From positions 11,006 through 75,005 of the forward strand of contig MFUG01000013.1 of the NCBI GenBank assembly GCA_001785615.1: 64,000 nucleotides of DNA. The letters run 5' to 3'. This DNA comes from Candidatus Nomurabacteria bacterium RIFCSPHIGHO2_02_FULL_42_19 (GTDB lineage Bacteria > Patescibacteriota > Minisyncoccia > Phycocordibacterales > UBA9973). This document shows, one piece after another, positions 10,410 through 64,000 of the stretch. Both the position numbers and the translations under genes were made by a program. Position 1 is the first letter of the stretch. Every line of letters starts with the position of its first letter. The notes under the pieces are model-generated. The model was given only the letters and a program-made list of their open reading frames with translations. It was not told the origin of the DNA and ran no database searches.

Positions 10410-11009
10410 TCACAGAATTTCTTCCAGGGCCTTTAGTAAGTCCTCAGGGGTGCTGACAACCTTTGCAGGGTTAGCTTTTTGTAAATTTTCTTCTTCATGA
10501 AATCCCCAGGTAACGGCGATGGACTTGATCCCGCATTCCCGTGCTTCGGCAATATCGCCTGTTGTGTCTGTAATAAAAACAGCATTTTCTGATGTAATTT
10601 TATATTTTTCCAAAAGCATTTTGTTTTTCACAACTTTGCTGGTGTGAATATCTCCTCCTAATATATCGGAAAAACATTCGAGGACATTCGCTTGTTTTAA
10701 AATTTTTGTTATGAGTGCTGACGGCGTCGCCGAAACAATGGCAAGTTTGTAATCTTTGTTTAGTTCAAAAATGATGTCTTGTAATGGTTGTGGTACCTTA
10801 AACTCCCGTGACTGTTCTTCGTATCGTTCGAAAAATTTAGGATGTTGTTTTACTTTAGGATTATTTTTTAATGAATTATAAATATTCCCATTAAAAAGAG
10901 AGCGGAACATGTGAAGAGACAAGTTTTCATTGGTCTCTTTGCTAATTTCATAACTCACTATGAATGTATCCACCAAGACCCCATCAAAATCAAAAAGAAT
11001 CAATTTCAT
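10410..11009 (-). CDS. HAD-superfamily hydrolase/phosphatase
   Basis: N-terminal motif I LILFDFDGVLVDT (DxDG). Confidence 0.75.
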   Translation of the reverse strand: MKLILFDFDGVLVDTFIVSYEISKETNENLSLHMFRSLFNGNIYNSLKNNPKVKQHPKFFERYEEQSREFKVPQPLQDIIFELNKDYKLAIVSATPSALITKILKQANVLECFSDILGGDIHTSKVVKNKMLLEKYKITSENAVFITDTTGDIAEARECGIKSIAVTWGFHEEENLQKANPAKVVSTPEDLLKALEEIL

Positions 11010-14000
11010 ACTTTATCAATCTTTACTTTGAAAACCAACTCCCCTATTTTCACCTCTTCGCTATTAGTGTCTTTAAATTCTATTTTGGATGCCAGTGCAA
11101 TTTTTTTAATATCTTGCTCAAATTTTTGGATTAAACTCTTTCCCGCGTCGTCGGTTTCAACAGAAAGGGTGATCATGTCGCTCGGCGTCAGCCCCATTTT
11201 CTTCCGCATATCTTGAACAGCGCGCAAAAGCTCGCGATAACTTCCCTCTTGCTTTAATTCATGAGTTAACTCAGTAATTAATTTAAATTCCTTTCCGGCT
11301 GAAACTTCTTTGACGTTCAATTCATCTTTTATTAGCTCAATATACTCTGTGGTTAAACTTAAATTCGCCAACTCTAACTTAGCAAGCGGCTGACGAACTT
11401 GGATTTTCGCTTTCTGCCTGGCTTCTAACCCTAAAGAAACTATTTTTCTAACCTCTGCCATGTTTTCTAAAACTTTTGGCCGAAGGTCCCGAGCAGAAAC
11501 GAGGGGCCACTCGGCCAAATGCACACTGCCTACATCCTTATCTGTTTTTAGTCGGCGCCAAATATCTTCTGCCGCAAACGGAGTAAACGGGGCCATAATT
11601 TTCGCTAGAGTTTTCAAAATAAAATACAAAGTTGCTTTCGCGTCCCCGTCTCCCTCTTTAATCCGCTCGCGGGAGCGGCGAAGGTACCAAGTAGAAAGGT
11701 CCCCTATAAAATCCTTTATCGCGCGGGTCGGTTCAAGCAATTTATAATTGTCTAAGCTGTCAGTAGTGAGTTTTACCAGCTCATTTAGTCGAGCTATGAT
11801 CCATTGATCAAGGACATTGGTAGGCTTTAGGCGGTAGGCACTAGGCTCTAGCGAAACATTCCGATATAGTTCATAGAAAGCCAACACATTGTAGAGCAGG
11901 CCGAAAACCTGCTGATGAAGAAGAGCCACCGTTTTTTCATCAAAATTTTTGGACTCACCCGGCTGATTGACCGAATACATCCATAAGCGCAGTGTATCCA
12001 CACCGTATTTATCTATCATTTCCCACGGGTTCACAATATTTCCCAGGGATTTGGACATTTTTTTACCATTGGCATCGAGTAAATGCCCGAGGCAAATCAC
12101 ATTTTTATACGCTTTTCCCCGGCCCATCAGCACCCCCACTGCGTGCAGGGTATAAAACCATCCACGGGTCTGGTCAATAGCTTCCGAAATAAAATCCGCC
12201 GGGTAGCCCTTGCCGTCTACCCATTTTTTGTTTTCAAAGGGATAATGATCTTGAGCGAAAGGCATGCAGCCGGAATCCAGCCACACATCCATTACCTCTT
12301 TAGTTCTTACCGCACTGCCGCCACAGTCGCACACCAGATGAACCCCATCAATATACGGACGATGCAAGTCAAGTTCATAATTTTCATTGTGCGGCAATGG
12401 GATAAAATCTAATTTTTTCATTTCTCCCGTATGAAGCATTTCTTTTTCTTTAAAATTATTATCTGAAGATCCAGCGGATATTTTTTGTAAAACCCATAAA
12501 GGGTTGCCGTGAGAAACTATAAGAATATTTTTCCCTTGATATTTATTATCAATCTCATATATAAATTCCGCCATTCTTCTCCTAACAATATCCTCACTGC
12601 CTTCGTTTGATTCATGAAGCCGATCATCAACTAAAACAGCGTCGGGAGCAAGGCCTAGTTCATTTTTTACTACCTCTGCGGTCTCTTTGGTTCTTAAAAA
12701 TGGCGAGGAAAATATCGGGTTTATATCTTTTAATTTCTTAGATGTAGATATTGCTTCCTTTTTACCTTTTTCAGTCAAGTGATTGTCCGGATCACCCTTT
12801 GGGTCCAACAAGTGTTTGGCGTTATTAATTGCTTCTCCATGCCGCATAATAAAATATTTATTGCCGGATTTTTTAGTTTTACTTTGGAGATCTTCCAAGC
12901 CCCCGACGACATGCCTCTTCTCACATTTTTCGCAAGTCCAGACGGGCAGAGGCGTGCCCCAGTATCGCTCGCGGGATATTGCCCAGTCCTTGATCTCCCG
13001 TAGCCATTCGCCGAAACGTCCCTCGCGGGTATGCGCCGGCTCCCAGTTTATATTTTTATTTTCATTAATTAGTTGTTTCTTAATTTTTGGATCCGACATT
13101 TTGATATACCAAGAGTCCCGCGCATAGTATATGAGCGCTGTCTTACAGCGCCAGCAGTGCGGATATGAGTGTTGATAGTTTTCTTTATCGAAAAATAAAT
13201 TTTTATCTGTTAAATATTTAATAATGTCCACATCCAAAGTTGGCTTTCCACTGTCGTCTTTTTCTCTCACAAATCTTCCTCCCAAGAACCCTGTGCCTTC
13301 TATAAACTTACCTTCGGGGTCTACCAGATGGTGTTTCGGTAGTCCTACTTTCGTACCAAGCTCAAAATCGTCTTGCCCATACATCACCGCGGTGTGCACG
13401 ATACCCGTACCGTCTTCAGTATTTACAAAGTCCGCCGCGTAAACCCGAAAGGCCTTATCTGTTGACTCCCCTTTTTTCTCTAGTTGTTCTTTTAAGTATG
13501 GGAAAAGTGGTTCGTACTCTAGCCCAACCAAATCTTTGCCTTTCATTTCGGTTATAACTTCAGGATTTTCACCAAAAACAGGAAGTCGCGCCTTTGCTAG
13601 AATATATATTTCGTCCCCGCTTTTGACTTTCACATAATCAACCTTCTCCCCCACCGCAAGCGCGACATTCCCTGGCAAAGTCCAAGAGGTGGTCGTCCAG
13701 GCCAAGAAATACATATTGGCCGAGTCTGTATGCTTTTGTGAAGGAGTGGCTGAGCGTAGTGAGGAACCGAGCGACTGAGGAAAAGCATCAGGCGAGGCCA
13801 GCTTGAACTTTACATAAACCGAAAGATCTTTCACTTCTTCATACCCCTGTGCGAGCTCGTGTGAAGAAAGCGCGGTGCCGCATCTCGGGCACCAAGGTAC
13901 CACCTTGTAATCCTTGTAAAGAAGTTTCTGATCATCTACTTTTTTTACAACATTCCAAACCGATTCAATATAATCATTGTGATATGTGGCATACGCATTT

Positions 14001-14437
14001 TCTTGATCTACCCAATATCCGACACGTTCGGTAAATTTATTCCAGGCCTCAAGATATTCCCAGACGCTCTCCCTGCATTCCTGATTAAATTTAGCTACAC
14101 CGTATTCCTCAATCGCTTTTTTTGAATTAAGACCTAATTTCTTTTCTACCTGGATTTCTACTGGAAGTCCATGCGTGTCCCAACCGCCCTTGCGGCGTAC
14201 ATGGTACCCCTGCATCGTTTTGTAGCGAGGAATCGCATCTTTGAAGACACGCGCTTCCAAGTGGTGAAGCGCTGGTTTAGCATTGGCCGTCGGCGGACCT
14301 TCGTAAAAGATAAATTCTTTTTTACCTTCGGATTCTTTTAATGTCTTTTCAAAAATTTTATTCTCGCGCCAAAATTCCAAGATGCGCTCTTCCCGAAGAG
14401 CCGCATCTGATTTTTTATTCTTTTCGGTTTCAGCCAT
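11006..14437 (-). CDS. ileS: Isoleucyl-tRNA synthetase (type 2, archaeal/eukaryote-like) with an inserted histidine-phosphatase (PGAM-like) domain
   Basis: Editing-domain motif WTTTSWTLPGN, KMSKS (KKMSKSLGN), LHRPYID...DVWLDSG. A ~125-aa insert at aa ~527-650 reads KYFIMRHGEAINN...LTEKGKKEA...SSPFLRTKETA...ILIVSHGNPL, i.e. the RHGE...SHG pattern of the histidine phosphatase superfamily. HIGH motif is non-canonical (PALHHLEA). Confidence 0.85.
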   Translation of the reverse strand: MAETEKNKKSDAALREERILEFWRENKIFEKTLKESEGKKEFIFYEGPPTANAKPALHHLEARVFKDAIPRYKTMQGYHVRRKGGWDTHGLPVEIQVEKKLGLNSKKAIEEYGVAKFNQECRESVWEYLEAWNKFTERVGYWVDQENAYATYHNDYIESVWNVVKKVDDQKLLYKDYKVVPWCPRCGTALSSHELAQGYEEVKDLSVYVKFKLASPDAFPQSLGSSLRSATPSQKHTDSANMYFLAWTTTSWTLPGNVALAVGEKVDYVKVKSGDEIYILAKARLPVFGENPEVITEMKGKDLVGLEYEPLFPYLKEQLEKKGESTDKAFRVYAADFVNTEDGTGIVHTAVMYGQDDFELGTKVGLPKHHLVDPEGKFIEGTGFLGGRFVREKDDSGKPTLDVDIIKYLTDKNLFFDKENYQHSYPHCWRCKTALIYYARDSWYIKMSDPKIKKQLINENKNINWEPAHTREGRFGEWLREIKDWAISRERYWGTPLPVWTCEKCEKRHVVGGLEDLQSKTKKSGNKYFIMRHGEAINNAKHLLDPKGDPDNHLTEKGKKEAISTSKKLKDINPIFSSPFLRTKETAEVVKNELGLAPDAVLVDDRLHESNEGSEDIVRRRMAEFIYEIDNKYQGKNILIVSHGNPLWVLQKISAGSSDNNFKEKEMLHTGEMKKLDFIPLPHNENYELDLHRPYIDGVHLVCDCGGSAVRTKEVMDVWLDSGCMPFAQDHYPFENKKWVDGKGYPADFISEAIDQTRGWFYTLHAVGVLMGRGKAYKNVICLGHLLDANGKKMSKSLGNIVNPWEMIDKYGVDTLRLWMYSVNQPGESKNFDEKTVALLHQQVFGLLYNVLAFYELYRNVSLEPSAYRLKPTNVLDQWIIARLNELVKLTTDSLDNYKLLEPTRAIKDFIGDLSTWYLRRSRERIKEGDGDAKATLYFILKTLAKIMAPFTPFAAEDIWRRLKTDKDVGSVHLAEWPLVSARDLRPKVLENMAEVRKIVSLGLEARQKAKIQVRQPLAKLELANLSLTTEYIELIKDELNVKEVSAGKEFKLITELTHELKQEGSYRELLRAVQDMRKKMGLTPSDMITLSVETDDAGKSLIQKFEQDIKKIALASKIEFKDTNSEEVKIGELVFKVKIDKV

Positions 14438-14491
14438 TATTGGCTGATTTTAGCACAAAATTTATGGTTTTACACCTTGCTAGATAAAATT

Positions 14492-14524
14492 AAAAACACA
14501 CCGTACTTACAGAGTAAGACGGTG
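14492..14524 (-). terminator. Rho-independent terminator for the GC-rich ORF
   Basis: On the minus strand: caccgtcttactctgtaagtacggtg followed by tgttttt, ~60 nt downstream of the stop of ORF 14585..15001. Confidence 0.6.
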
Positions 14525-14584
14525 CATTGATTCGTGAGCCCCCGCGCCGCTAGATATTGCACGGGGACTCCTGCGACCTGCCAA

Positions 14585-15001
14585 CTACGAGGCCACGGTT
14601 TCTTTCCGTGCCGGCAGGTATTGACCGATCACGAAGTCAACGCGGCTCATCAGCCGTGCCCTGTTCTCCTCGTAGGCCTTGAGGGAAGCCGCGATTTCCT
14701 CTCCGACCATCTGGGTCTCAAGTTCAGCCCAGATTCGGCCATACTCCTCGAGCGCGCCGACGAAACTCGCCACCACCAGCTCAATGCCGTCCTCTTTCAG
14801 TTCCGACAAACCCCATATTAAGAAGTATCGGCTGTTTGGGGAAAGACGACTGGAGATGAGCTTCTCGACAAGGTGTTCGTGGATAGCTCTGCGGGCATGA
14901 CTTTTATACAAAGAGCCGCCACCCCGGTACGCAAGCTCGATGATGTGGGCGTCTTCGTAATAGTGACGCACATTGATGTACGCCCCTGAAGAGGTAGGCA
15001 C
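14585..15001 (-). CDS. Hypothetical protein in a compositionally anomalous (GC-rich) island. Possibly a gene remnant
   Basis: Only a GTG start is available and there is no in-frame ATG. Local GC is clearly higher than flanks, with long ORFs in several frames. No recognisable motif. Confidence 0.3.
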   Translation of the reverse strand: MPTSSGAYINVRHYYEDAHIIELAYRGGGSLYKSHARRAIHEHLVEKLISSRLSPNSRYFLIWGLSELKEDGIELVVASFVGALEEYGRIWAELETQMVGEEIAASLKAYEENRARLMSRVDFVIGQYLPARKETVAS

Positions 15002-15079
15002 GGTCTGGCCTGTGTACCTGCCATCCTTGATGACCCACGTAAACGGGAGACCGCGGTCTTCAAAACATCTTTGTCAAAA

Positions 15080-16795
15080 CTACATTTTAGTTGGCGCTTC
15101 GATGCCGAGGAGGTGCAGGCCTTTTTTCATTACGAAAGTAAAAGCGTAAGTGAGCGCCACTTTATAGGAAGAGGTCTTATCTTTTTTATCCACGATAACC
15201 GTATTGCCATAAAAGCTGTTGAAGGCGCGAGCGACTTCTATTAAATAGTTTGCAATGTAATGCGGCTCGTATTCGGAAGCAGAGCGAGACACAACTTCCG
15301 GAAATTTATATAATAATTTTTCTACCTCCGTTATTTCAGCAGGCAGAACTTCAAAATCCGGCAAAATATTTTCACTTTTCGCTTTCTCTAGCACTGAATT
15401 TGCTCGAGCATAAGAATATTGTAAGTACGGTCCGGAATCACCTTCAAAAGAAATTGATTTATCAAAATCATAAATGATGTTTCCGCCAGTGGATTGCTTG
15501 AGTATTGAATATTTGATAGCGGCTACGGCAACGCTAGAAATAATTTTCTCTTCCGCATCTTGGTCGAAGCTTCTGTCCTTCATTTTTTCTGCTACAAGCA
15601 TTTTTGTGTCTTGAATAAGGGTCTCTCCCGTTATCACATTCCCTTTGCGCGAGCTCATCTTTTCTCCCGCGAAGCGCATCATCCCGTGCGTAATGTGGAG
15701 CATTTTATTTTGAAATTCGGGATGAATGATGGAAAGCGCGCTCTCCACCACCCGCATATAGTCCGCTTGCTCCTGCGCGGTGATAACTATAGAGAGATCC
15801 ATGCCCGGCGCTGTTTTAAATTTCTCCATCGTGAGCCCAAGTTCCTTGGCCTCATAGGTAGGGAGCCCTTGCGAGGTTATGAAAACGCGGGTGTGAAGCT
15901 TTGGATCGCGCTTTTCGGCTTTGAATACGATAGCGCCATTCGACTTTTCGAAAACTTTTCCTACATTTTCCTTCACAATGCTTCTCCCCGATGGCGCCAC
16001 TACGCTCTCTAGAAAATAAAAATCAAACTGAGTGCCCAGCATGTCATATATATCTTCGAAGGTCTTCATAGTTACTTCGAAACCCCAGTCATATATCTCA
16101 TTTATTTTTTTATCGCTTCGCTCGTAAATTTTCTTATTTATTTCATCTATTTTTGTTTTTGCATTCTTTTCATACGCTTCCGCGCCTAGAGCGTAGGCCA
16201 CTCCGATATTGGCGGACTGCTCCGCGGTAGAACCGGACTTGCCTTGTAATTTTTCATCTTGTAAAAGGCCCCAGATCGCTTTAGCCACATGTAGCCCGAC
16301 GTCACCCTGGTAGTTGGCCCTAGAAACAGTGGCATCGGAGTGCTCAAGAATGCGCGCGATAGATTCTCCGATGGCATTCGTCATCAAATGCCCGATGTGG
16401 AAGGGCTTGAAAGGGTTCGGATCCGTGTATTCAACCATTACGCGCTTACCTGCAAACATATTATTTCCGCCCAAGGCGGATCCGCCTCCGGTGGATAAAA
16501 TTTTCTCGATACTTTCGCTAAAAAATTTATGTGGCAAATAGAAATTTATGAAACCATTTCCAGCAGCTTCTACTTTTGAAATTTCTTCCGGTAAATTCTT
16601 ATTTATTTCATCTCTGATTTGTACAGCTAGATTTTTCGGGTTCGTTTTTAATTTTTTAGCCAAAACCATCGCCACGTTAGTGGAATAGTCGCCATTCTTC
16701 AAGTCCTCCGGATGCTCCAGGATAAAATCGGACTTCTTTATTTTAAGTCGATCCAGTGCTTCGTTAATTAAATTTTTTATTTTTTCTTGAATCAT
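15080..16795 (-). CDS. argS: Arginyl-tRNA synthetase
   Basis: Class I HIGH motif (PFHIGHLMT). ArgRS N-terminal add-on domain and C-terminal anticodon-binding (DALR-type) region. 571 aa. Confidence 0.9.
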   Translation of the reverse strand: MIQEKIKNLINEALDRLKIKKSDFILEHPEDLKNGDYSTNVAMVLAKKLKTNPKNLAVQIRDEINKNLPEEISKVEAAGNGFINFYLPHKFFSESIEKILSTGGGSALGGNNMFAGKRVMVEYTDPNPFKPFHIGHLMTNAIGESIARILEHSDATVSRANYQGDVGLHVAKAIWGLLQDEKLQGKSGSTAEQSANIGVAYALGAEAYEKNAKTKIDEINKKIYERSDKKINEIYDWGFEVTMKTFEDIYDMLGTQFDFYFLESVVAPSGRSIVKENVGKVFEKSNGAIVFKAEKRDPKLHTRVFITSQGLPTYEAKELGLTMEKFKTAPGMDLSIVITAQEQADYMRVVESALSIIHPEFQNKMLHITHGMMRFAGEKMSSRKGNVITGETLIQDTKMLVAEKMKDRSFDQDAEEKIISSVAVAAIKYSILKQSTGGNIIYDFDKSISFEGDSGPYLQYSYARANSVLEKAKSENILPDFEVLPAEITEVEKLLYKFPEVVSRSASEYEPHYIANYLIEVARAFNSFYGNTVIVDKKDKTSSYKVALTYAFTFVMKKGLHLLGIEAPTKM

Positions 16796-17221
16796 CTATT
16801 TATGCCCAGTGCTTCCCTCACGCCCGACTCCGCGTACCGTCTCCGAGAGTTCCTGTATCTCTACAATATCACAATGTTCAAACTTTTGAACCAACATTTG
16901 GGCTACTTTATGCCCCTTCTCAAGCAGAATATCTTTACCGGAAGTGTTCAAAAAATTCATAATGATTTCGCCCCTATAGCTGGAATCTACAACGCCACCC
17001 ATAACTTTTAAACCAAGATTAAAGGAAATGCTTGATTTATCCCAGATCAGGCCCACGTGACCTTCCGGAATTTCTACGGCAATCCCTGTATGCACCTCAT
17101 TTTGTTTGCCGGCCGGGAAAATAACATCTTCTACCGTATAAAAATCCATTCCTGCGTCCCCGGGATGCCCATGCGTCGGCACCTTTGCATTCTTATGTAA
17201 TTTTTTAACTTTGATTTTCAT
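16796..17221 (-). CDS. dut: dUTP diphosphatase
   Basis: 141 aa with trimeric dUTPase motifs (GDAGMDF, VDSSYRGEI, RGVGREGSTG). Confidence 0.9.
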   Translation of the reverse strand: MKIKVKKLHKNAKVPTHGHPGDAGMDFYTVEDVIFPAGKQNEVHTGIAVEIPEGHVGLIWDKSSISFNLGLKVMGGVVDSSYRGEIIMNFLNTSGKDILLEKGHKVAQMLVQKFEHCDIVEIQELSETVRGVGREGSTGHK

Positions 17222-31611: not shown

Positions 31612-33062
31612 CCCATTCGAAGATAATCAAAAAAAAAGACGGGGATAAAGGTATAATTATAGTGCAAACAATGGTCTTCGCCGCTATTGTCGTAATCATC
31701 ATCGGAGCACTTTCAAGTTTTGCCGCTACAACCATAAAAGCAGGAAGGATAAATTTTAATCGGGAGCAGGCCCTGCAAGCGGCGGAGGCCGGCATTGATT
31801 ATTATCGTTGGCATTTGGCGCACGCGCCAAGCGACTACCAGGACGGCACTGGCGCTCCGGGGCCTTATGTGCATTCATTGAAAGACAAAAGCGGAAATAC
31901 GGTTGGAGAATTTTCTCTGGACCTTACCGCGCCACCCGTCGGATCAACGATAGTTAAAATAAAGTCAACCGGGTCTTCGGTGCTTGATGCGTCTTACCTA
32001 AGAAAAATATTGAGTTTCGTCGCAAAGCCCTCCATCGCTAAATACGCCGTCGCGGGGAACAACGCTATGCGCTTCGGCGTCGGCACGGAAATTTTCGGAC
32101 CAGTGCACGTAAATGGGGGAATACGTTTTGACGGTCTGGCGCACAACCTGGTAACCAGCGGAGCGACAACTTATACCGATGGGGACTATGACGCTTGCAC
32201 TGGCGCCAATTCTTACGGAGTCCATACCTGTGTCAACCCAGACGACCCGACATCGCCGACGCCACTTCCTTCTCGACCGGATGTTTTTGAGGCCGGACGT
32301 TTAATTAGTCAGCCGATAATTGACTTTACTAGTTTTACCGCCGACTTAGCAATATTACAGGCAAATGCAATAGCAAGTGGATTTTATAGAGACGTAGCCG
32401 GTAGCGGATATGTGGGTTATCATTTGGTCTTAAAAACAAATGATACTTTCGATTTATATAAAATAAATTCGTGGGCGAGTTTGGGTAGCTGTTCGTCATC
32501 GCCCTCGGGAACGCCCAGCTGGAGTGTTGGTACTCAAACCCTAGAAGGTAATTACCCGTTCCCGGCCAATGGAATAATATTTATAGAAGATCACTTGGTA
32601 ATAGACGGACAGATAAACGGGGCACGACTCACCATCACGGCCGCTGACTTGCCGGTACCTTCTTCCTCTTCCGGCTATAAAAATGTTTTAACAAATAACG
32701 ACTTGTCTTATACGAATTATGACGGTACGGACTCTATTGGAATAATTGGACAGAAAGGGGTAATGGTAGGGCTCTTCAGTGAAGATAACTTAAAAATAGA
32801 TGCGGCGCTTATCGCGCAAAACGACCGAGTGGGAAGATTTTATTATTCGGGCGGAAGTTGCACCTATAAAAATCGAAGTGTTATTTCTCTCTACGGCATG
32901 ATTGCCTCTTATGCCAGATACGGATTCGCCTATACAAACGGTACTGGTTATACCACGCGAAATATAACTTATGATGCGAATTTGCTGTACGCTCCGCCTC
33001 CGGACTTTCCTCTTACTTCGGATGAATACCAGATTCTTTCATGGCAGGAAGTGTATAACTAA
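31608..33062 (+). CDS. Type IV pilin-like protein (PilX-like N-terminus), large
   Basis: N-terminal hydrophobic helix IIIVQTMVFAAIVVIIIGAL after a short basic leader. 484 aa. Confidence 0.6.
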   Translation: MTHSKIIKKKDGDKGIIIVQTMVFAAIVVIIIGALSSFAATTIKAGRINFNREQALQAAEAGIDYYRWHLAHAPSDYQDGTGAPGPYVHSLKDKSGNTVGEFSLDLTAPPVGSTIVKIKSTGSSVLDASYLRKILSFVAKPSIAKYAVAGNNAMRFGVGTEIFGPVHVNGGIRFDGLAHNLVTSGATTYTDGDYDACTGANSYGVHTCVNPDDPTSPTPLPSRPDVFEAGRLISQPIIDFTSFTADLAILQANAIASGFYRDVAGSGYVGYHLVLKTNDTFDLYKINSWASLGSCSSSPSGTPSWSVGTQTLEGNYPFPANGIIFIEDHLVIDGQINGARLTITAADLPVPSSSSGYKNVLTNNDLSYTNYDGTDSIGIIGQKGVMVGLFSEDNLKIDAALIAQNDRVGRFYYSGGSCTYKNRSVISLYGMIASYARYGFAYTNGTGYTTRNITYDANLLYAPPPDFPLTSDEYQILSWQEVYN

Positions 33063-37318: not shown

Positions 37319-39337
37319 ATGGATAAATTTTTATTGTTTATACTTGTCAGTTCAGTCGTATCAATACTTTACGGGTTGGTCGTGGCTAAAAAGATATTAA
37401 AAAAGAGCGCTGGTAACGAAAAAATGCAAGGAATTGCCAAAGCCATAGAAGAAGGAGCTACGGCTTATTTGAATAGGCAATACAAAACTATCGGCGTCAT
37501 TGCCGTTATATTATTTTTTATCATGGGTCTCGTTCCACAGTTGGGCTGGACGACGGCATTCGGGTTTATCTTCGGCGCGATTCTTTCGGCTTTAGCTGGG
37601 TACATTGGGATGAATGTTTCGGTACGAGCAAATGTGCGCACCGCGGAAGCCGCTAAATTAGGTCTGAAAGAATCCTTAGCCATCGCTTTTGACGGTGGCA
37701 CAGTTACCGGACTTCTAGTCGTCGGGCTTTCTTTGCTTGGAGTTACTTTGTCTTTTATGGTAACTGGCGACGTAAAAGCGCTTATCGGTTTTGGTTTTGG
37801 TGGCTCCTTAATATCAATCTTTGCCCGTTTGGGCGGAGGCATTTTTACTAAAGCCGCGGACGTAGGGGCGGATCTGGTGGGAAAATTAGAAGCCGGCATA
37901 CCGGAAGACGATCCGAGAAATGCCGCCTTTATCGCGGACAATGTGGGCGACAATGTGGGCGACTGCGCTGGTATGGCGGCGGATCTTTTTGAGACCTACG
38001 CGGTTACTTCTATCGCCACAATGCTTTTGGGCTCGCTTATTTTCCCCGACTCACCGAATGCGCTTCTCTTCCCTTTGGCCCTCGGTGGGATGGCGGCTCT
38101 CGCCTCAATTGTGGGCACTTTTTTCGTACGCTTAGGAAAATCTGCCCGCGCAGGCGGATCACCAAATATAATGAATGCTTTATACAAGGGTTTGATTGCG
38201 ACAGGAGTGATTTCGGCAGTCGCTTTTTACCCAATTACAAAAATGCTAATGGGAGACAATGGACTTTATGATGCGCTAAATCTTTTCTACGCAACCTTGG
38301 TCGGACTGGTGGTCACTGGGTTCTTGGTGGTCATTACCGAATATTTTACCGCTTCCAAATATGCCCCTGTTCGATCCATTGCCAATGCGTCGATTTCCGG
38401 ACATGGTACCAATATAATTCAGGGACTTGCGATTTCAATGAAATCAACTGCTTTACCGGTAATAGTTATCACACTCGGAATTCTTTTCTCCTACAATTTT
38501 GCCGGCCTTTATGGTATTGCGGTCGCGGCTATGTCCATGCTTTCCATGGCGGGCATTATCATAGCCATTGATGCTTATGGACCAATTACTGATAACGCCG
38601 GAGGTATTGCGGAAACAGCTGGGCTATCCCCGGAAGTAAGGACTATTACCGACGCTCTTGATGCGGTCGGCAACACCACCAAAGCAGTCACCAAGGGCTA
38701 TGCCATCGGCTCAGCCGGCCTTGCTGCTCTTGTTTTATTTGCTTCTTATACCCAAGAATTTGCAAACGCTGGTCTAAATCTTAATTTCACTTTAGAAGAT
38801 CCAAAGCTTATTGCGGGACTTTTCTTGGGCGGACTTCTGCCTTATTATTTCGGAGCGCTTTGTATGGAAGCAGTGGGAAAAACCGCGGGTAAAGTAGTCG
38901 AAGAGGTACGCAGACAATTTAGAGAAATAAAAGGAATCATGGACGGTAGTGGAAAACCAGAGTACGGAAAATGTGTGGACATTGTGACTAGTAGCGCCAT
39001 CAAGCAGATGATCGTGCCAGCCCTTATCCCAATTGTCGCACCAATTTTAGTTGGTTTTATCTTAGGACCAGTTGCTCTCGGCGGAATGTTGGTGGGCTCA
39101 ATCATCACCGGACTTTTCGTGGCAATATCCATGACCTCTGGCGGCGGGGCCTGGGACAACGCGAAGAAATACATTGAAGAAGGAAACCACGGCGGTAAAG
39201 GAGGAAATGCTCATAAGGCAGCTATCACCGGAGACACCGTAGGCGACCCTTATAAAGATACGGCCGGACCCGCTATCAACCCGATGATTAAAGTACTCAA
39301 TATTGTGGCCTTGCTTCTGGTGGCTTTCTTGGTATAA
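37319..39337 (+). CDS. hppA: Membrane-bound proton/sodium-translocating pyrophosphatase
   Basis: Signature [21 protein letters not shown]. ~16 TM helices, 672 aa. Confidence 0.9.
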
Positions 39338-46458: not shown

Positions 46459-47988
46459 ATGGGATTAACAATAATAACTCTAATCGGGGCTCTAGTGCTC
46501 CTTTTGGGCATAGGCATTGGGTATTATTTGCGCTTAATTATCGCGCTCGGGAAAAGGCGTTCTATTGAAATTGACATTAAGCAGATGATGGTTGCGGCCA
46601 AGGAAGAAGCGCAGAGAATCACGGACGAAGCAAAGAAAAAGTCGGAGAGAGACCTGGCTACCTTAAAAGAGGAAGAGAAAAAGAAGGAACAAGAGTTCAA
46701 AGAAACGGAAAAACGTCTTATTAAAAAAGACGAGTTTTTGGACGCCAGGCAAGTTGAAATAGATAAAGAAGTTGAGAATATAAAATTGAAAGTTGAAGAA
46801 ATAAAAAGAATTCAAGAAAAGGTTTCTAAAATAGAAGAGGAAAAAGCAAGCCAGCTGGAGAGAGTGGCGCGGCTTTCCCAGGAAGAAGCTAAGGAAGAGC
46901 TTCTAAAAGAAGTGGAAAAAAAGTATGAAGAGGATATTTTAAGCAGAATGCAAAAGTTGGAAAACACCAACGAGGAAAAGCTGGACCGAAGGGCGAAAGA
47001 TATTCTGGCCACCAGCATTCAGCGCCTGGCTTCTAGTACCGCCTCGGAATTAATGACTACGGTGGTATCAATTCCAAATAACGAAATCAAGGGCAAAATT
47101 ATCGGCAAAGAAGGCAGAAATATAAGGGCTTTTGAACGGGCCGCCGGAGTAGAACTCATCGTGGATGACACTCCCGGCTCTATTGTTATCTCTTCTTTTG
47201 ACCCGATCAGGCGGCAAGTAGCGCGCCTGGCGTTGGAGAATTTAATCTTAGATGGGCGCATTCAGCCGGCTAAAATTGAAGAACTGGTAGAAAAAGCGAA
47301 AGAAGAGATAAATAAAATAATCAAAGAGAAAGGTGAGCAGGCGGTGTATGAATGCGGAATCTTTAACTTTGATCCGCGCATTGTGGCTATCATCGGGCGG
47401 CTATACTTCCGCACTAGCTATGGACAAAACGTGCTTCAGCATTCCATTGAGATGGCGCACATTGCCGGCATGCTGGCGGAGGAACTTGGCGCGGATGTTG
47501 CCATTGCAAAAGCGGGGGCTTTGGTGCACGACATCGGCAAGGCGCTGGACCATGAAGTGCAAGGCACGCATATAGAGATAGGTATGCGCATACTGCAGAA
47601 GTTCGGCGCGGACGAAAAGATTATTACCGCCATGAAGAGCCATCATGAGGACTATCCATATGAAACAATAGAGTCCGTTATTGTGCAAACTGCGGACTCC
47701 ATTTCCGGTGGCCGCCCTGGAGCCCGCCGCGACTCCGTAGAAAACTACTTGAAACGTTTGAAGGAGCTGGAAGCATTGGTAAATGCCTTCCCGTCAGTGG
47801 AAAAATCCTACGCCCTGCAGGCCGGCCGTGAAATACGCATCTTCGTCACCCCGGAGAAAATTTCGGACGCCGAAGCCAAGCTCATGGCTCGCGATATTGC
47901 CATGAAAATAGAGCAAGAATTGAAATATCCCGGTGAAATCAAGGTCACTTTGATAAGGGAGACCCGGGTAATCGAGTATGCTAGATAA
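46459..47988 (+). CDS. rny: Ribonuclease Y
   Basis: N-terminal TM anchor, long coiled-coil, KH domain (GKIIGKEGRNIRAFE), HD domain (HSIEMAHIAG...LVHDIGK). Confidence 0.9.
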   Translation: MGLTIITLIGALVLLLGIGIGYYLRLIIALGKRRSIEIDIKQMMVAAKEEAQRITDEAKKKSERDLATLKEEEKKKEQEFKETEKRLIKKDEFLDARQVEIDKEVENIKLKVEEIKRIQEKVSKIEEEKASQLERVARLSQEEAKEELLKEVEKKYEEDILSRMQKLENTNEEKLDRRAKDILATSIQRLASSTASELMTTVVSIPNNEIKGKIIGKEGRNIRAFERAAGVELIVDDTPGSIVISSFDPIRRQVARLALENLILDGRIQPAKIEELVEKAKEEINKIIKEKGEQAVYECGIFNFDPRIVAIIGRLYFRTSYGQNVLQHSIEMAHIAGMLAEELGADVAIAKAGALVHDIGKALDHEVQGTHIEIGMRILQKFGADEKIITAMKSHHEDYPYETIESVIVQTADSISGGRPGARRDSVENYLKRLKELEALVNAFPSVEKSYALQAGREIRIFVTPEKISDAEAKLMARDIAMKIEQELKYPGEIKVTLIRETRVIEYAR

Positions 47989-62896: not shown

Positions 62897-64000
62897 GATT
62901 ATTTGTGAAAAAATCCTTGTTCGCTTCCCGGATAGATAAGCTAATCTTGCCCCTCTCTTTATCAATTTTGATAACCTTCACCGGGACCTCCATGCCTTCT
63001 TTTATTATATCGCTAACTCGCTCTACACGGAATGGCGCGAGCTCCGAGATATGCACCATGCCGTCAACGAAAGGATTGAGTTGGACAAAGGCCCCAAAAT
63101 CGGCAACTTTCACCACTTTGCCGTTGAGTGTTTCGCCCATGGTAAATTCGTGCGTCATTTCTTCCACTAATGCTTTGGCGACCTCCACGGTTCCACTTTT
63201 CCCTGTTAAATACACCGTGCCGTCGTCCTCAATGGTAATCTCCGCACCGGATTTTTCTTTGATTTCTTTGATGGTCTTGCCCCCACTCCCGATAACCATC
63301 CCGATTTGATCCGGATTGATTTTAATCATGATTATTTTCGGCGCGTTGGGAGAAATTTCCTTGCGCGGGGCCGAAATTTCTTTTTCAATTTTATCGATGA
63401 TGCCAGTGCGAGCCCCTTTGGCTTGGCGCATCGCTTCGCCCAGTATTTTTATCGGTACGCCTGCTACCTTTACATCAAGCTGGATAGCGGTGATGCCTTC
63501 CCTGGTCCCGGCCACCTTGAAATCCATGTCCCCGTAATGGTCTTCGGGGCCCTGAATGTCGGTCAGGATTTTGTATTGTGGTTCTTTTTTAATTTGTAAT
63601 TTTTTATTCGTAATTTGTTCTATCATCAGCCCTATGGCAATCCCCGCCACCGGCGCTTTGATCGGCACTCCACCGTCCATCAAGGCGAGAGTGGCAGCGC
63701 AGATGGAGGCCTGGGAAGTGGAGCCGTTCGAAGCCATTGATTCAGAAACTACGCGTATGGTGTAAGGAAATTCTAGGGCAGGCGGCAAGACCATGGCAAG
63801 CGCTTTCTCGGCGAGCGCGCCGTGGCCGACTTCGCGGCTGTTGGTGAAACCGGCCCGACCCGTCTCCCCTGAAGAGTATGGGGGAAAGTTGTAATGATGC
63901 ATAAATCTTTTTTCACTTTTTGTCTGCATGCCATCAATCATGTGTCTGTCTTCGGGCCCGCCTAAGGTAAGCACGGAGAGCACATGGGTTCCTCCACGAT
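62871..64000 (-). CDS. pnp: Polynucleotide phosphorylase, C-terminal part (second RNase PH domain + KH + S1). The N-terminus runs off the window
   Basis: GLMIEQITNKK...KH motif IGSGGKTIKEI, S1 (GKVVKVADFGAFVQL), and the RNase PH-like region with NGSTSQAS. Confidence 0.85.
   Translation of the reverse strand, partial: RGGTHVLSVLTLGGPEDRHMIDGMQTKSEKRFMHHYNFPPYSSGETGRAGFTNSREVGHGALAEKALAMVLPPALEFPYTIRVVSESMASNGSTSQASICAATLALMDGGVPIKAPVAGIAIGLMIEQITNKKLQIKKEPQYKILTDIQGPEDHYGDMDFKVAGTREGITAIQLDVKVAGVPIKILGEAMRQAKGARTGIIDKIEKEISAPRKEISPNAPKIIMIKINPDQIGMVIGSGGKTIKEIKEKSGAEITIEDDGTVYLTGKSGTVEVAKALVEEMTHEFTMGETLNGKVVKVADFGAFVQLNPFVDGMVHISELAPFRVERVSDIIKEGMEVPVKVIKIDKERGKISLSIREANKDFFTNNHGRGTGAK

Follow-up and report, generated by a model that had tools for sequence, protein, structure and literature searches.

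The locus between argS and ileS

We analysed a 64,000-nucleotide stretch of Candidatus Nomurabacteria bacterium RIFCSPHIGHO2_02_FULL_42_19 (contig MFUG01000013.1, positions 11,006 to 75,005; hereafter the window, in whose own numbering positions are given) and, within it, a GC-rich island between the genes for arginyl-tRNA synthetase (argS) and isoleucyl-tRNA synthetase (ileS). The inserted segment spans about 14470-15079 and carries a minus-strand open reading frame (ORF) related to a rare, unnamed protein family that we refer to as ORFx. We consider it likely that the island is a copy of a small accessory gene of the stand-alone type, truncated at its 5' end and most likely inactive, from a rare and hypervariable family with high GC content at third codon positions (GC3). 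The features of the locus are as follows.

15080..16795, minus strand: argS, arginyl-tRNA synthetase, 571 aa, the upstream neighbour (Pfam Arg_tRNA_synt_N, tRNA-synt_1d, DALR_1)
15080-15082, minus strand: argS stop codon TAG
15069..15079, minus strand: TTTTGACAAAG with the -35-like TTGACA, probably the sole surviving piece of a promoter (11-mer common to L062)
14585..15073, minus strand: open frame of 162 codons (sense codons 14588-15073) plus TAG stop, the 5'-truncated ORFx copy and GC-rich body (phmmer, alignments A1 and A2)
14585-14587, minus strand: stop codon of the open frame
14585..15001, minus strand: 138-aa coding sequence P0001 of the Joint Genome Institute (JGI) annotations, with GTG, the first canonical start codon, as its start
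14536..14570, minus strand: hairpin 1 of the 3' untranslated region (3'UTR), a GC-rich 12-bp stem with an 11-nt loop (folding; same in L065)
14482..14528, minus strand: predicted intrinsic terminator, stem-loop 14495-14528 and U-tract 14482-14494 (folding; match in L065)
14438..14463, minus strand: ancestral argS-ileS spacer with the conserved ileS upstream motif TTTTGTGCTAAAATCAGCCAATA (same motif in relatives)
14447-14455, minus strand: extended -10-like TGCTAAAAT (TGnTAAAAT), ending 9 nt before the ileS ATG, with no Shine-Dalgarno (SD) sequence
11006..14437, minus strand: ileS, isoleucyl-tRNA synthetase, 1143 aa, the downstream neighbour (Pfam tRNA-synt_1, Anticodon_1, DUF5915)

The island (14530-15075) had a GC content of 56.4%, compared with 41.8% for the whole window; within the wider bounds of the earlier note (14450-15075) the value was 53.5%. 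Windows of 200 bp peaked at 59% GC (14500-14799), and the maximum among all 546-bp windows was 57.0% (start 14511, z = 3.4; mean 41.7%, standard deviation (sd) 4.3%). The abrupt GC-rich island reported in the earlier note is therefore real as the top 546-bp stretch, and the uniform GC that would have contradicted it was found neither in windowed GC nor in GC3. The island is the extreme of a heterogeneous GC distribution, not a lone spike, with GC peaks of 52-57% elsewhere in the 64 kb within ordinary genes. Lower peaks (0.55-0.57 in 300-bp windows) were located at 31801-32350, 37801-38200, 47351-47900, and 63401-63950, at least the last two inside long ORFs.

The excess was concentrated at third codon positions of the open frame, whose GC1, GC2, and GC3 were 0.59, 0.42, and 0.67, respectively. 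Its GC3 of 0.667 exceeded that of all 59 other window ORFs of at least 100 aa (mean 0.413, sd 0.065, maximum 0.58). With the codon preferences of argS, ileS, and dut the expected GC3 is 0.46; the observed value was 5.5 sd above it and was reached in none of 100,000 simulations. The frame used ATC in 82% of cases versus 25% in the host, GAC in 80% versus 36%, and GAG in 59% versus 37%, and both NNC and NNG codons were elevated. Overall, the window copy was 14 GC points above its host.

An assembly chimera was ruled out, as the island is base-for-base identical in the independent assemblies of two JGI samples (contigs L001 and L002). No tRNA gene was found in the 64-kb window, no direct or inverted repeats flank the island, and no integrase lies at the island, whose only ORF is the relic itself. 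Plus-strand and alternative-frame ORFs of the island gave no Pfam match. A literature search on GC-rich islands in the candidate phyla radiation (CPR) returned only general context on horizontal gene transfer.

The open frame belongs to a rare protein family

In agreement with the earlier note, the island holds no long ORF besides the minus-strand frame, and an ATG is missing near the 5' end of that frame; the first canonical start is the GTG at 15001, with no in-frame ATG, GTG, or TTG before V25. A phmmer search against 1.84 billion cluster representatives returned 17 proteins, of which nine had E-values no higher than 1e-10. Among the foreign matches the best, P0002 (45% identity, E 8.7e-32), comes from a Patescibacteria metagenome-assembled genome (MAG), and homology covers query residues 2-157. 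We denoted as ORFx the family P0002-P0014 (alignment A2), whose members are about 180-220 aa long. A hidden Markov model (HMM) of A2, built with the window copy included, scored that copy at 204 bits, and T24, G30, I33, A60, H65, Y111, and W115 of the frame occupy columns that are invariant or nearly so. Judged by this homology, the island is protein-coding DNA of a rare unnamed family.

The family appears to be small. A word-indexed protein search with the window sequence matched only itself, and a profile search with a clean alignment (P0016 excluded) added no family members, while the search that included P0016 was polluted. P0016 (L052 244-732, on a 763-bp contig of ~60% GC) carries the C-terminus of GcvPB, glycine dehydrogenase subunit 2, fused in frame to the C-terminal ~65 aa of ORFx; an HMM built without P0016 scored it at E 5.8e-12. 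Either P0016 is a true recombinant from an organism of higher GC, or its short contig is chimeric. In the cluster of P0010, a copy is split into 109 + 103 aa (P0033/P0034) on a single 59-kb ENA contig and is apparently a further pseudogene of the family. PADLOC gave no consistent hit to toxin-antitoxin or anti-phage defence systems, and the family gene has no paired gene in the argS-ileS contexts L049 and L062 or in the greA context L059.

An AlphaFold2 model of P0002 (14-sequence alignment) reached a predicted local distance difference test score (pLDDT) of 91.5 and a predicted template modelling score of 0.80. In predicted order it comprises helix 1, four strands, helix 2, strand 5, and three helices closing in a long hairpin. 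The model of the 138-aa P0001 starts at family strand 3, with helix 1 and strands 1-2 missing.

In AT-rich genomes a GC-rich segment often proves to be an RNA, the 3' end of the island has two stable hairpins, and relatives carry a T-box before ileS; all three would suit a structured non-coding RNA or a regulatory leader, e.g., for ileS, in which the ORF is incidental. However, a search of 13500-16000 against Rfam 15 gave no match at E up to 1, the T-box core motif is absent from the window, and the frame shows protein homology at 25-45% identity, conserved G/A/H/W columns, a confident predicted fold, and a GC excess placed at its third codon positions. The protein homology effectively refutes the RNA reading, to which we give almost no credence.

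A variable slot between two core genes

Full-length ArgRS relatives in GTDB genomes belonged to Candidatus Nomurabacteria / Paceibacterota (Patescibacteria, CPR) with 43-73% identity, and the order dut-argS-ileS was widely conserved among relatives. The ORFx HMM found no member in 46 GTDB relatives, and no degraded ORFx remnants were seen in the argS-ileS gaps of the 19 relatives searched. Fourteen relatives have an argS-ileS gap of only 4-126 bp. In the "empty" L005, L014, L015, and L042, the entire 31-33-bp spacer reads TTT(T/A)TG(T/C)TAAAATCAG(C/T)(C/G)..TA-ATG, and the same motif occurs at 14438-14463 of the window. In 17 relatives the slot holds 0.57-5.7 kb of cargo, including a PIF1-like helicase, secreted proteins of ~1000 aa, and small ORFs. 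Because spacers are empty or varied among relatives, the island sits in a variable slot. The synteny comparison thus gave the opposite of a segment conserved in all relatives with typical codon usage, the outcome that the earlier note had named as contrary evidence.

The same slot is nevertheless occupied by family members in three other Nomurabacteria-type genomes, L049, L062, and L065. P0011 (L049) and P0007 (L062) lie in the order argS-gene-ileS, and P0010 (L065/L066) in the order dut-argS-PIF1-gene-ileS, with a T-box between gene and ileS in L065. In another Patescibacteria lineage, P0002, P0004, P0005, and P0006 lie in the order ybeY, 77-aa ORF, gene, greA, and a class II aminoacyl-tRNA synthetase gene, and P0003 lies near lon and an amino-acid permease. 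All family members with assignable context are in Patescibacteria chromosomes, with one family copy per locus in every context seen. In the ArgRS tree the window, L065, and L049 are on neighbouring deep branches and L062 is distant. The distribution fits ancestral presence with repeated loss, and it equally fits slot-specific exchange.

Several further observations concern the neighbouring sequences. The ileS upstream motif also precedes ileS in L009, L023, L028, L031, and L040; it is found in about 10 relatives irrespective of upstream content and without a Shine-Dalgarno sequence, which suggests that the ileS mRNA may be leaderless or near-leaderless. The commonest slot occupant is the PIF1-like helicase, which has the N-terminus MTQ(D/S)QAL(D/N)ILK and starts a few bases past the argS stop. 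It directly follows argS in L003, L009, L022, L023, and L065, and MTQ... starts after the argS stop were also seen in L007, L016, L024, L025, L043, and L047. The dUTPase of L065 (1211-1639) is 27% identical to that of the window (16796-17221) and the dUTPase of L049 is 74% identical, while the ArgRS identities to the window are 71% for L065 and 64% for L049; this suggests that dut may have been replaced in L065.

T-box leaders precede ileS in L065 (5824-6005), L003, L004, L008, L013, L017, L019, L020, L029, L045, and L046. The match to Rfam RF00230 was 40.3 bits (E 1.2e-7), below the gathering threshold of 93. Stem I is a short hairpin whose loop carries AUC (Ile) and A in most of these loci, most of which also have the canonical AAGGUGGUACCACG core and a terminator with U-run ending 5-10 nt before the ATG. 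By these motifs, the leader of the relatives looks like an ultrashort-Stem-I, transcription-terminating T-box in Patescibacteria; a literature search linking "T-box riboswitch" with "Patescibacteria" found none. In addition, IleRS aa 529-613 (12599-12853, minus strand) form an inserted PF00300 His_Phos_1 segment within the catalytic domain, also present in L049 and L065; a literature search on this IleRS and His_Phos_1 combination found nothing.

Probable loss of the 5' end and of expression signals

Where enough upstream sequence was available, most full-length family members showed a strong GGAGG at 7-9 nt upstream of the ATG, within the recurring ribosome-binding site (RBS) context GGAGGTTCTTC-ATG. 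A clear SD sequence and ATG were recognized in the homologues of L049, L053, L056, L057, L062, and L065. Homologues in the argS slot also have promoter-like hexamers just past the argS stop, TTGACA-17 nt-TAGTGT in L062 and TTGCGA-17 nt-TAATCT in L049.

In the window, TTTTGACAAAG follows the argS stop and leads directly into family residue ~19. The open frame begins two codons past the argS stop with "QRCF", which corresponds to P0002 residue 18-19, and query residue 2 aligns to P0002 residue 19. Alignments to the family begin at residue ~18-20 of the ~180-aa homologues, or later where an extra N-terminal membrane helix is present. The N-terminus of the family, helix 1 "IFxEIxxCF" plus Met with or without the membrane helix, is not in the window frame. 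The window copy therefore has no -10 box, leader, SD sequence, or ATG and lacks at least 18 codons (helix 1), so that the gene remnant proposed in the earlier note is well founded. The 11-mer TTTTGACAAAG occurs once in the window (0.14 expected) and also in L062, 5 nt past the argS stop and upstream of the full-length homologue; it is probably the only remaining piece of the promoter of the accessory gene. As the -10 box, leader, RBS, start codon, and N-terminal helix have been lost, the window copy is most likely an inactive relic, a reading drawn from sequence comparison.

It is possible, though unlikely, that the shortened gene is functional, with a 138-aa protein made from the GTG at 15001 on argS read-through transcripts. 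All 162 homologous codons are free of stops and frameshifts, the product was called as a gene in two JGI annotations, and its AlphaFold2 model is predicted with high confidence. Moreover, a terminator scan found no terminator between argS and the frame, which should therefore be transcribed. On the other hand, the GTG has no well-placed SD sequence upstream, in contrast to the GGAGG of most full-length members. The product would also lack helix 1, strands 1-2, the family-invariant Thr just before the GTG, and a nearly invariant Phe, and no other member is so short, split copies excepted. A read-through fusion to ArgRS is unsupported, given two in-frame stops.

A second route to expression would be a start at the out-of-frame ATG at 15066-15068 (ATG TTT TGA), followed by a prfB-like +1 slip into the frame. 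The sequence ATG-TTT-TGA-A would let tRNA-Phe re-pair perfectly in the +1 frame before the stop. However, this ATG has no SD sequence or stimulatory element and its product would still be without helix 1. No homologue has such a site, and those with sufficient upstream sequence mostly have an ordinary SD sequence and ATG; the motif is also so short that a deletion junction could have created it by chance. We found the +1 frameshift unsupported and consider it highly implausible.

It should be noted that several results weigh against our interpretation of the island as a truncated, inactive family member. The 162 codons contain no stop or frameshift and their GC3 is undecayed, which implies either a very recent truncation or continuing selection on what remains. 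JGI gene callers accept the 138-aa GTG-start product, and its model has a pLDDT of 93.7, although this value is silent on stability without helix 1 and strands 1-2. The assignment of the -35 element and promoter stands on consensus matches and one shared 11-mer. Furthermore, Pfam, NCBIfam, PHROGs, and PADLOC gave no consistent match for the ORF and all 14 family members, and a sequence-profile search of the PDB reached only E = 0.71 at best. Foldseek searches with both models also returned nothing significant (best E at least 0.33 against the PDB and at least 0.09 against BFVD, TM-score at most 0.45).

The recurring top weak Foldseek matches of both models were secretion-chaperone/YbjN-like structures (DR_1245 4h5b, CesT 1k3e, SrcA/STM2138 3epu, and ARPC4 6w17_F). 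These folds share with ORFx the order helix, beta-meander, helix. However, the matches have E of at least 1, TM-scores of 0.25-0.45, and root-mean-square deviations of 5.4-14 Å, and ORFx differs in that a long helical hairpin is added at its C-terminus and a membrane anchor is often present. A secretion-chaperone-like topology is thus a hint from predicted models and serves as a lead only.

The predicted terminator and the 3'UTR

An intrinsic terminator had been placed at 14492-14524 in the earlier note. A predicted terminator is indeed present, with coordinates that differ by a few bases: a bulged 15-bp stem-loop at 14495-14528 is followed by UGUUUUUAAUUUU (14482-14494). The stem-loop folds at -16.5 kcal/mol (z = -4.25), and none of 200 shuffles was as stable; its bulge hid it from a simple consensus scanner. 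The 56 nt that start in the middle of hairpin 1, with its second half, and take in the terminator and U-run match the 3'UTR of L065 at 91% identity (alignment score 72, compared with a maximum of 26 in 1000 shuffles). The two 3'UTRs have the same two-hairpin architecture with an 11-nt loop in hairpin 1, whose stem shows one compensatory double change, C:G to U:A. A hairpin and U-run were also found 3' of the L049 and L062 homologues.

The element resembles known intrinsic terminators in its GC-rich 15-bp stem-loop followed by a U-run, located 3' of the stop codon and conserved in L065. It differs in being preceded by a second conserved GC-rich hairpin and in the gene it would serve since the truncation, argS in place of the one it belonged to. 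Based on its position, the terminator probably now ends the argS transcript before the conserved, putative ileS promoter.

These features suggest the following history. In intact relatives the unit comprises its own promoter, a GGAGG(TTCTTC) RBS, an ATG, an ORF of 180-220 aa, a GC-rich hairpin, and an intrinsic terminator, and it occupies the variable slot between the core genes argS and ileS. In the encoded protein, helix 1, which may be preceded by an N-terminal membrane helix, leads into a meander of four strands; helix 2 and strand 5 come next, and a long helical hairpin closes the C-terminus. In the window, a deletion ending no more than ~12 nt from the argS stop would have taken the -10 box, leader, RBS, start codon, and first ~18 or more codons, leaving behind the -35-like TTGACA, 162 sense codons, two 3' hairpins, and the U-tract. 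Today the relic would be carried only at the 3' end of argS transcripts, and the retained terminator would halt transcription from argS shortly ahead of the conserved promoter-like motif adjoining the start codon of ileS.

A hypervariable, GC3-rich family

The body of the gene diverges much faster than its neighbours. Between the window and L065, identity was 71% for ArgRS and 66% for IleRS versus 28% for ORFx, and in the greA lineage it was 73-88% for GreA versus 31-38% for ORFx. At the DNA level, L056 and L057 are 81% identical in the flanks and 72% in the 5'UTR and first ~85 nt of the gene, with no detectable similarity in the rest. Pairwise identities within the family were 21-46%, star-like and ungrouped by slot, with a saturation that prevents a firm tree; the closest relative of the window copy (45%) sits in a different slot and lineage.

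The GC excess is shared by the family. In 10 of 11 contexts the family member exceeded its surroundings in GC, the margin being +5 to +16 points and L053 the exception, and in GC3 it was the top ORF in four of the seven longer loci and the second in two more. In the greA lineage the excess was kept at one syntenic position across well-diverged genomes (GreA 73-88%), which marks it as characteristic of the family rather than simply a recent import still awaiting amelioration. The high GC is a codon-level (GC3) trait of the gene family, not of this genome, and GC richness alone therefore neither dates nor proves a recent transfer here. A position effect of the slot is unlikely, as PIF1 and the large secreted proteins in it are not GC-rich. 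Candidate causes of the GC3 excess are continuing exchange with a source pool of higher GC, recombination at the locus with biased gene conversion, and selection.

Beside these family members, hypothetical genes without Pfam matches that are markedly GC- or GC3-rich for their genome were seen in L057 (5344-5838), L059 (1976-2659), L065 (9570-10052), L004 (12191-12787), and L017 (4408-4967). They lie close to family members or immediately upstream of the ileS leader, with GC3 of, e.g., 0.72 and 0.74, and those of L004 and L017 include pairs of small Cys-rich ORFs. Their presence is a hint that GC-rich accessory genes may form a broader class in this group of bacteria.

The earlier note had suggested horizontally acquired, foreign DNA, which is partly right: the composition and codon usage are atypical, the distribution is patchy with an identifiable empty site, and the island lies outside the conserved core. 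A distant donor is not supported. A recent, un-ameliorated transfer from a high-GC donor outside the Patescibacteria would explain 56% GC and a GC3 of 0.67 in a 42% GC genome with both NNC and NNG raised, a codon pattern that suits a GC-rich mutational background better than translational selection alone. The family fragment fused to gcvPB on the 60% GC contig (P0016/L052) would also fit. However, no close donor was found at the DNA or protein level, the best foreign match (45%) being to a Patescibacteria MAG, and all assignable contexts are Patescibacterial. Homologues occupy the same slot in L049, L062, and L065, the last with the nearly identical 3'UTR; the family-wide GC excess persists at a syntenic position; and mobility genes, tRNA, and target duplications are not present. 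We regard a distant high-GC donor as improbable.

The conserved ends and hypervariable body of the family also bring to mind a silent promoterless cassette that donates sequence by recombination to an expressed full-length locus elsewhere. The expression signals and the conserved 5' end are precisely what is missing from the window copy, and its ORF is intact. Against this, the 64-kb window holds a single family member, no full-length paralogue from the same samples was found among the 1.84 billion representatives, only one copy per locus was seen everywhere, and the relic has no flanking repeats, making such a role very improbable.

A more general proposal, which we put forward with considerable doubt, is that ORFx may be an undescribed polymorphic single-gene cassette of Patescibacteria that occupies fixed slots immediately upstream of housekeeping genes (ileS, greA), with conserved regulatory ends at 5' and 3' and a body that is exchanged or diversified very rapidly (ORFx identity 28-38% where neighbouring proteins reach 71-88%). 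Its role in these episymbionts would lie in interaction with host or phage or in telling self from non-self. If true, the GC3 excess would come from ongoing exchange or from biased gene conversion, not from a single transfer, and the window copy would be a decaying or silent allele.

Relation to known systems and implications

Accessory genes that survive as relics in variable slots between core genes are a kind of feature already known; the ORFx family itself is uncharacterised. Gene relics in hotspots between core genes likewise show a variable slot, atypical composition, patchy distribution, and decay by deletion. Acquired genes are more often AT-rich. The island differs from hotspot relics in its GC above that of the host, in having no integrase, tRNA, or direct repeats, and in the recurrence of ORFx in the same slot of distant genomes. 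Silent 5'-truncated variable cassettes are known from Neisseria pilS and from orphan polymorphic toxin/immunity modules. By analogy, the window copy would resemble them as a promoterless, start-less copy of a hypervariable gene with conserved ends, but it is a single copy with no expressed partner locus seen and no recombination repeats. Of the transfers into Patescibacteria that can be detected, published work traces most to donors within the same group (PMC12455944), which fits a Patescibacterial ORFx gene pool.

For the truncated, most likely inactive copy in the window, the annotation of a 138-aa "hypothetical protein" is better described as a 5'-truncated relic. The confident predicted fold without a significant match, the extreme divergence between conserved ends, and the persistent GC3 excess make ORFx a modest lead. 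If the pattern holds on a larger sample, the family would offer a handle on how accessory genes circulate in streamlined episymbionts, and GC deviation alone would be a poor clock of gene transfer in these genomes.

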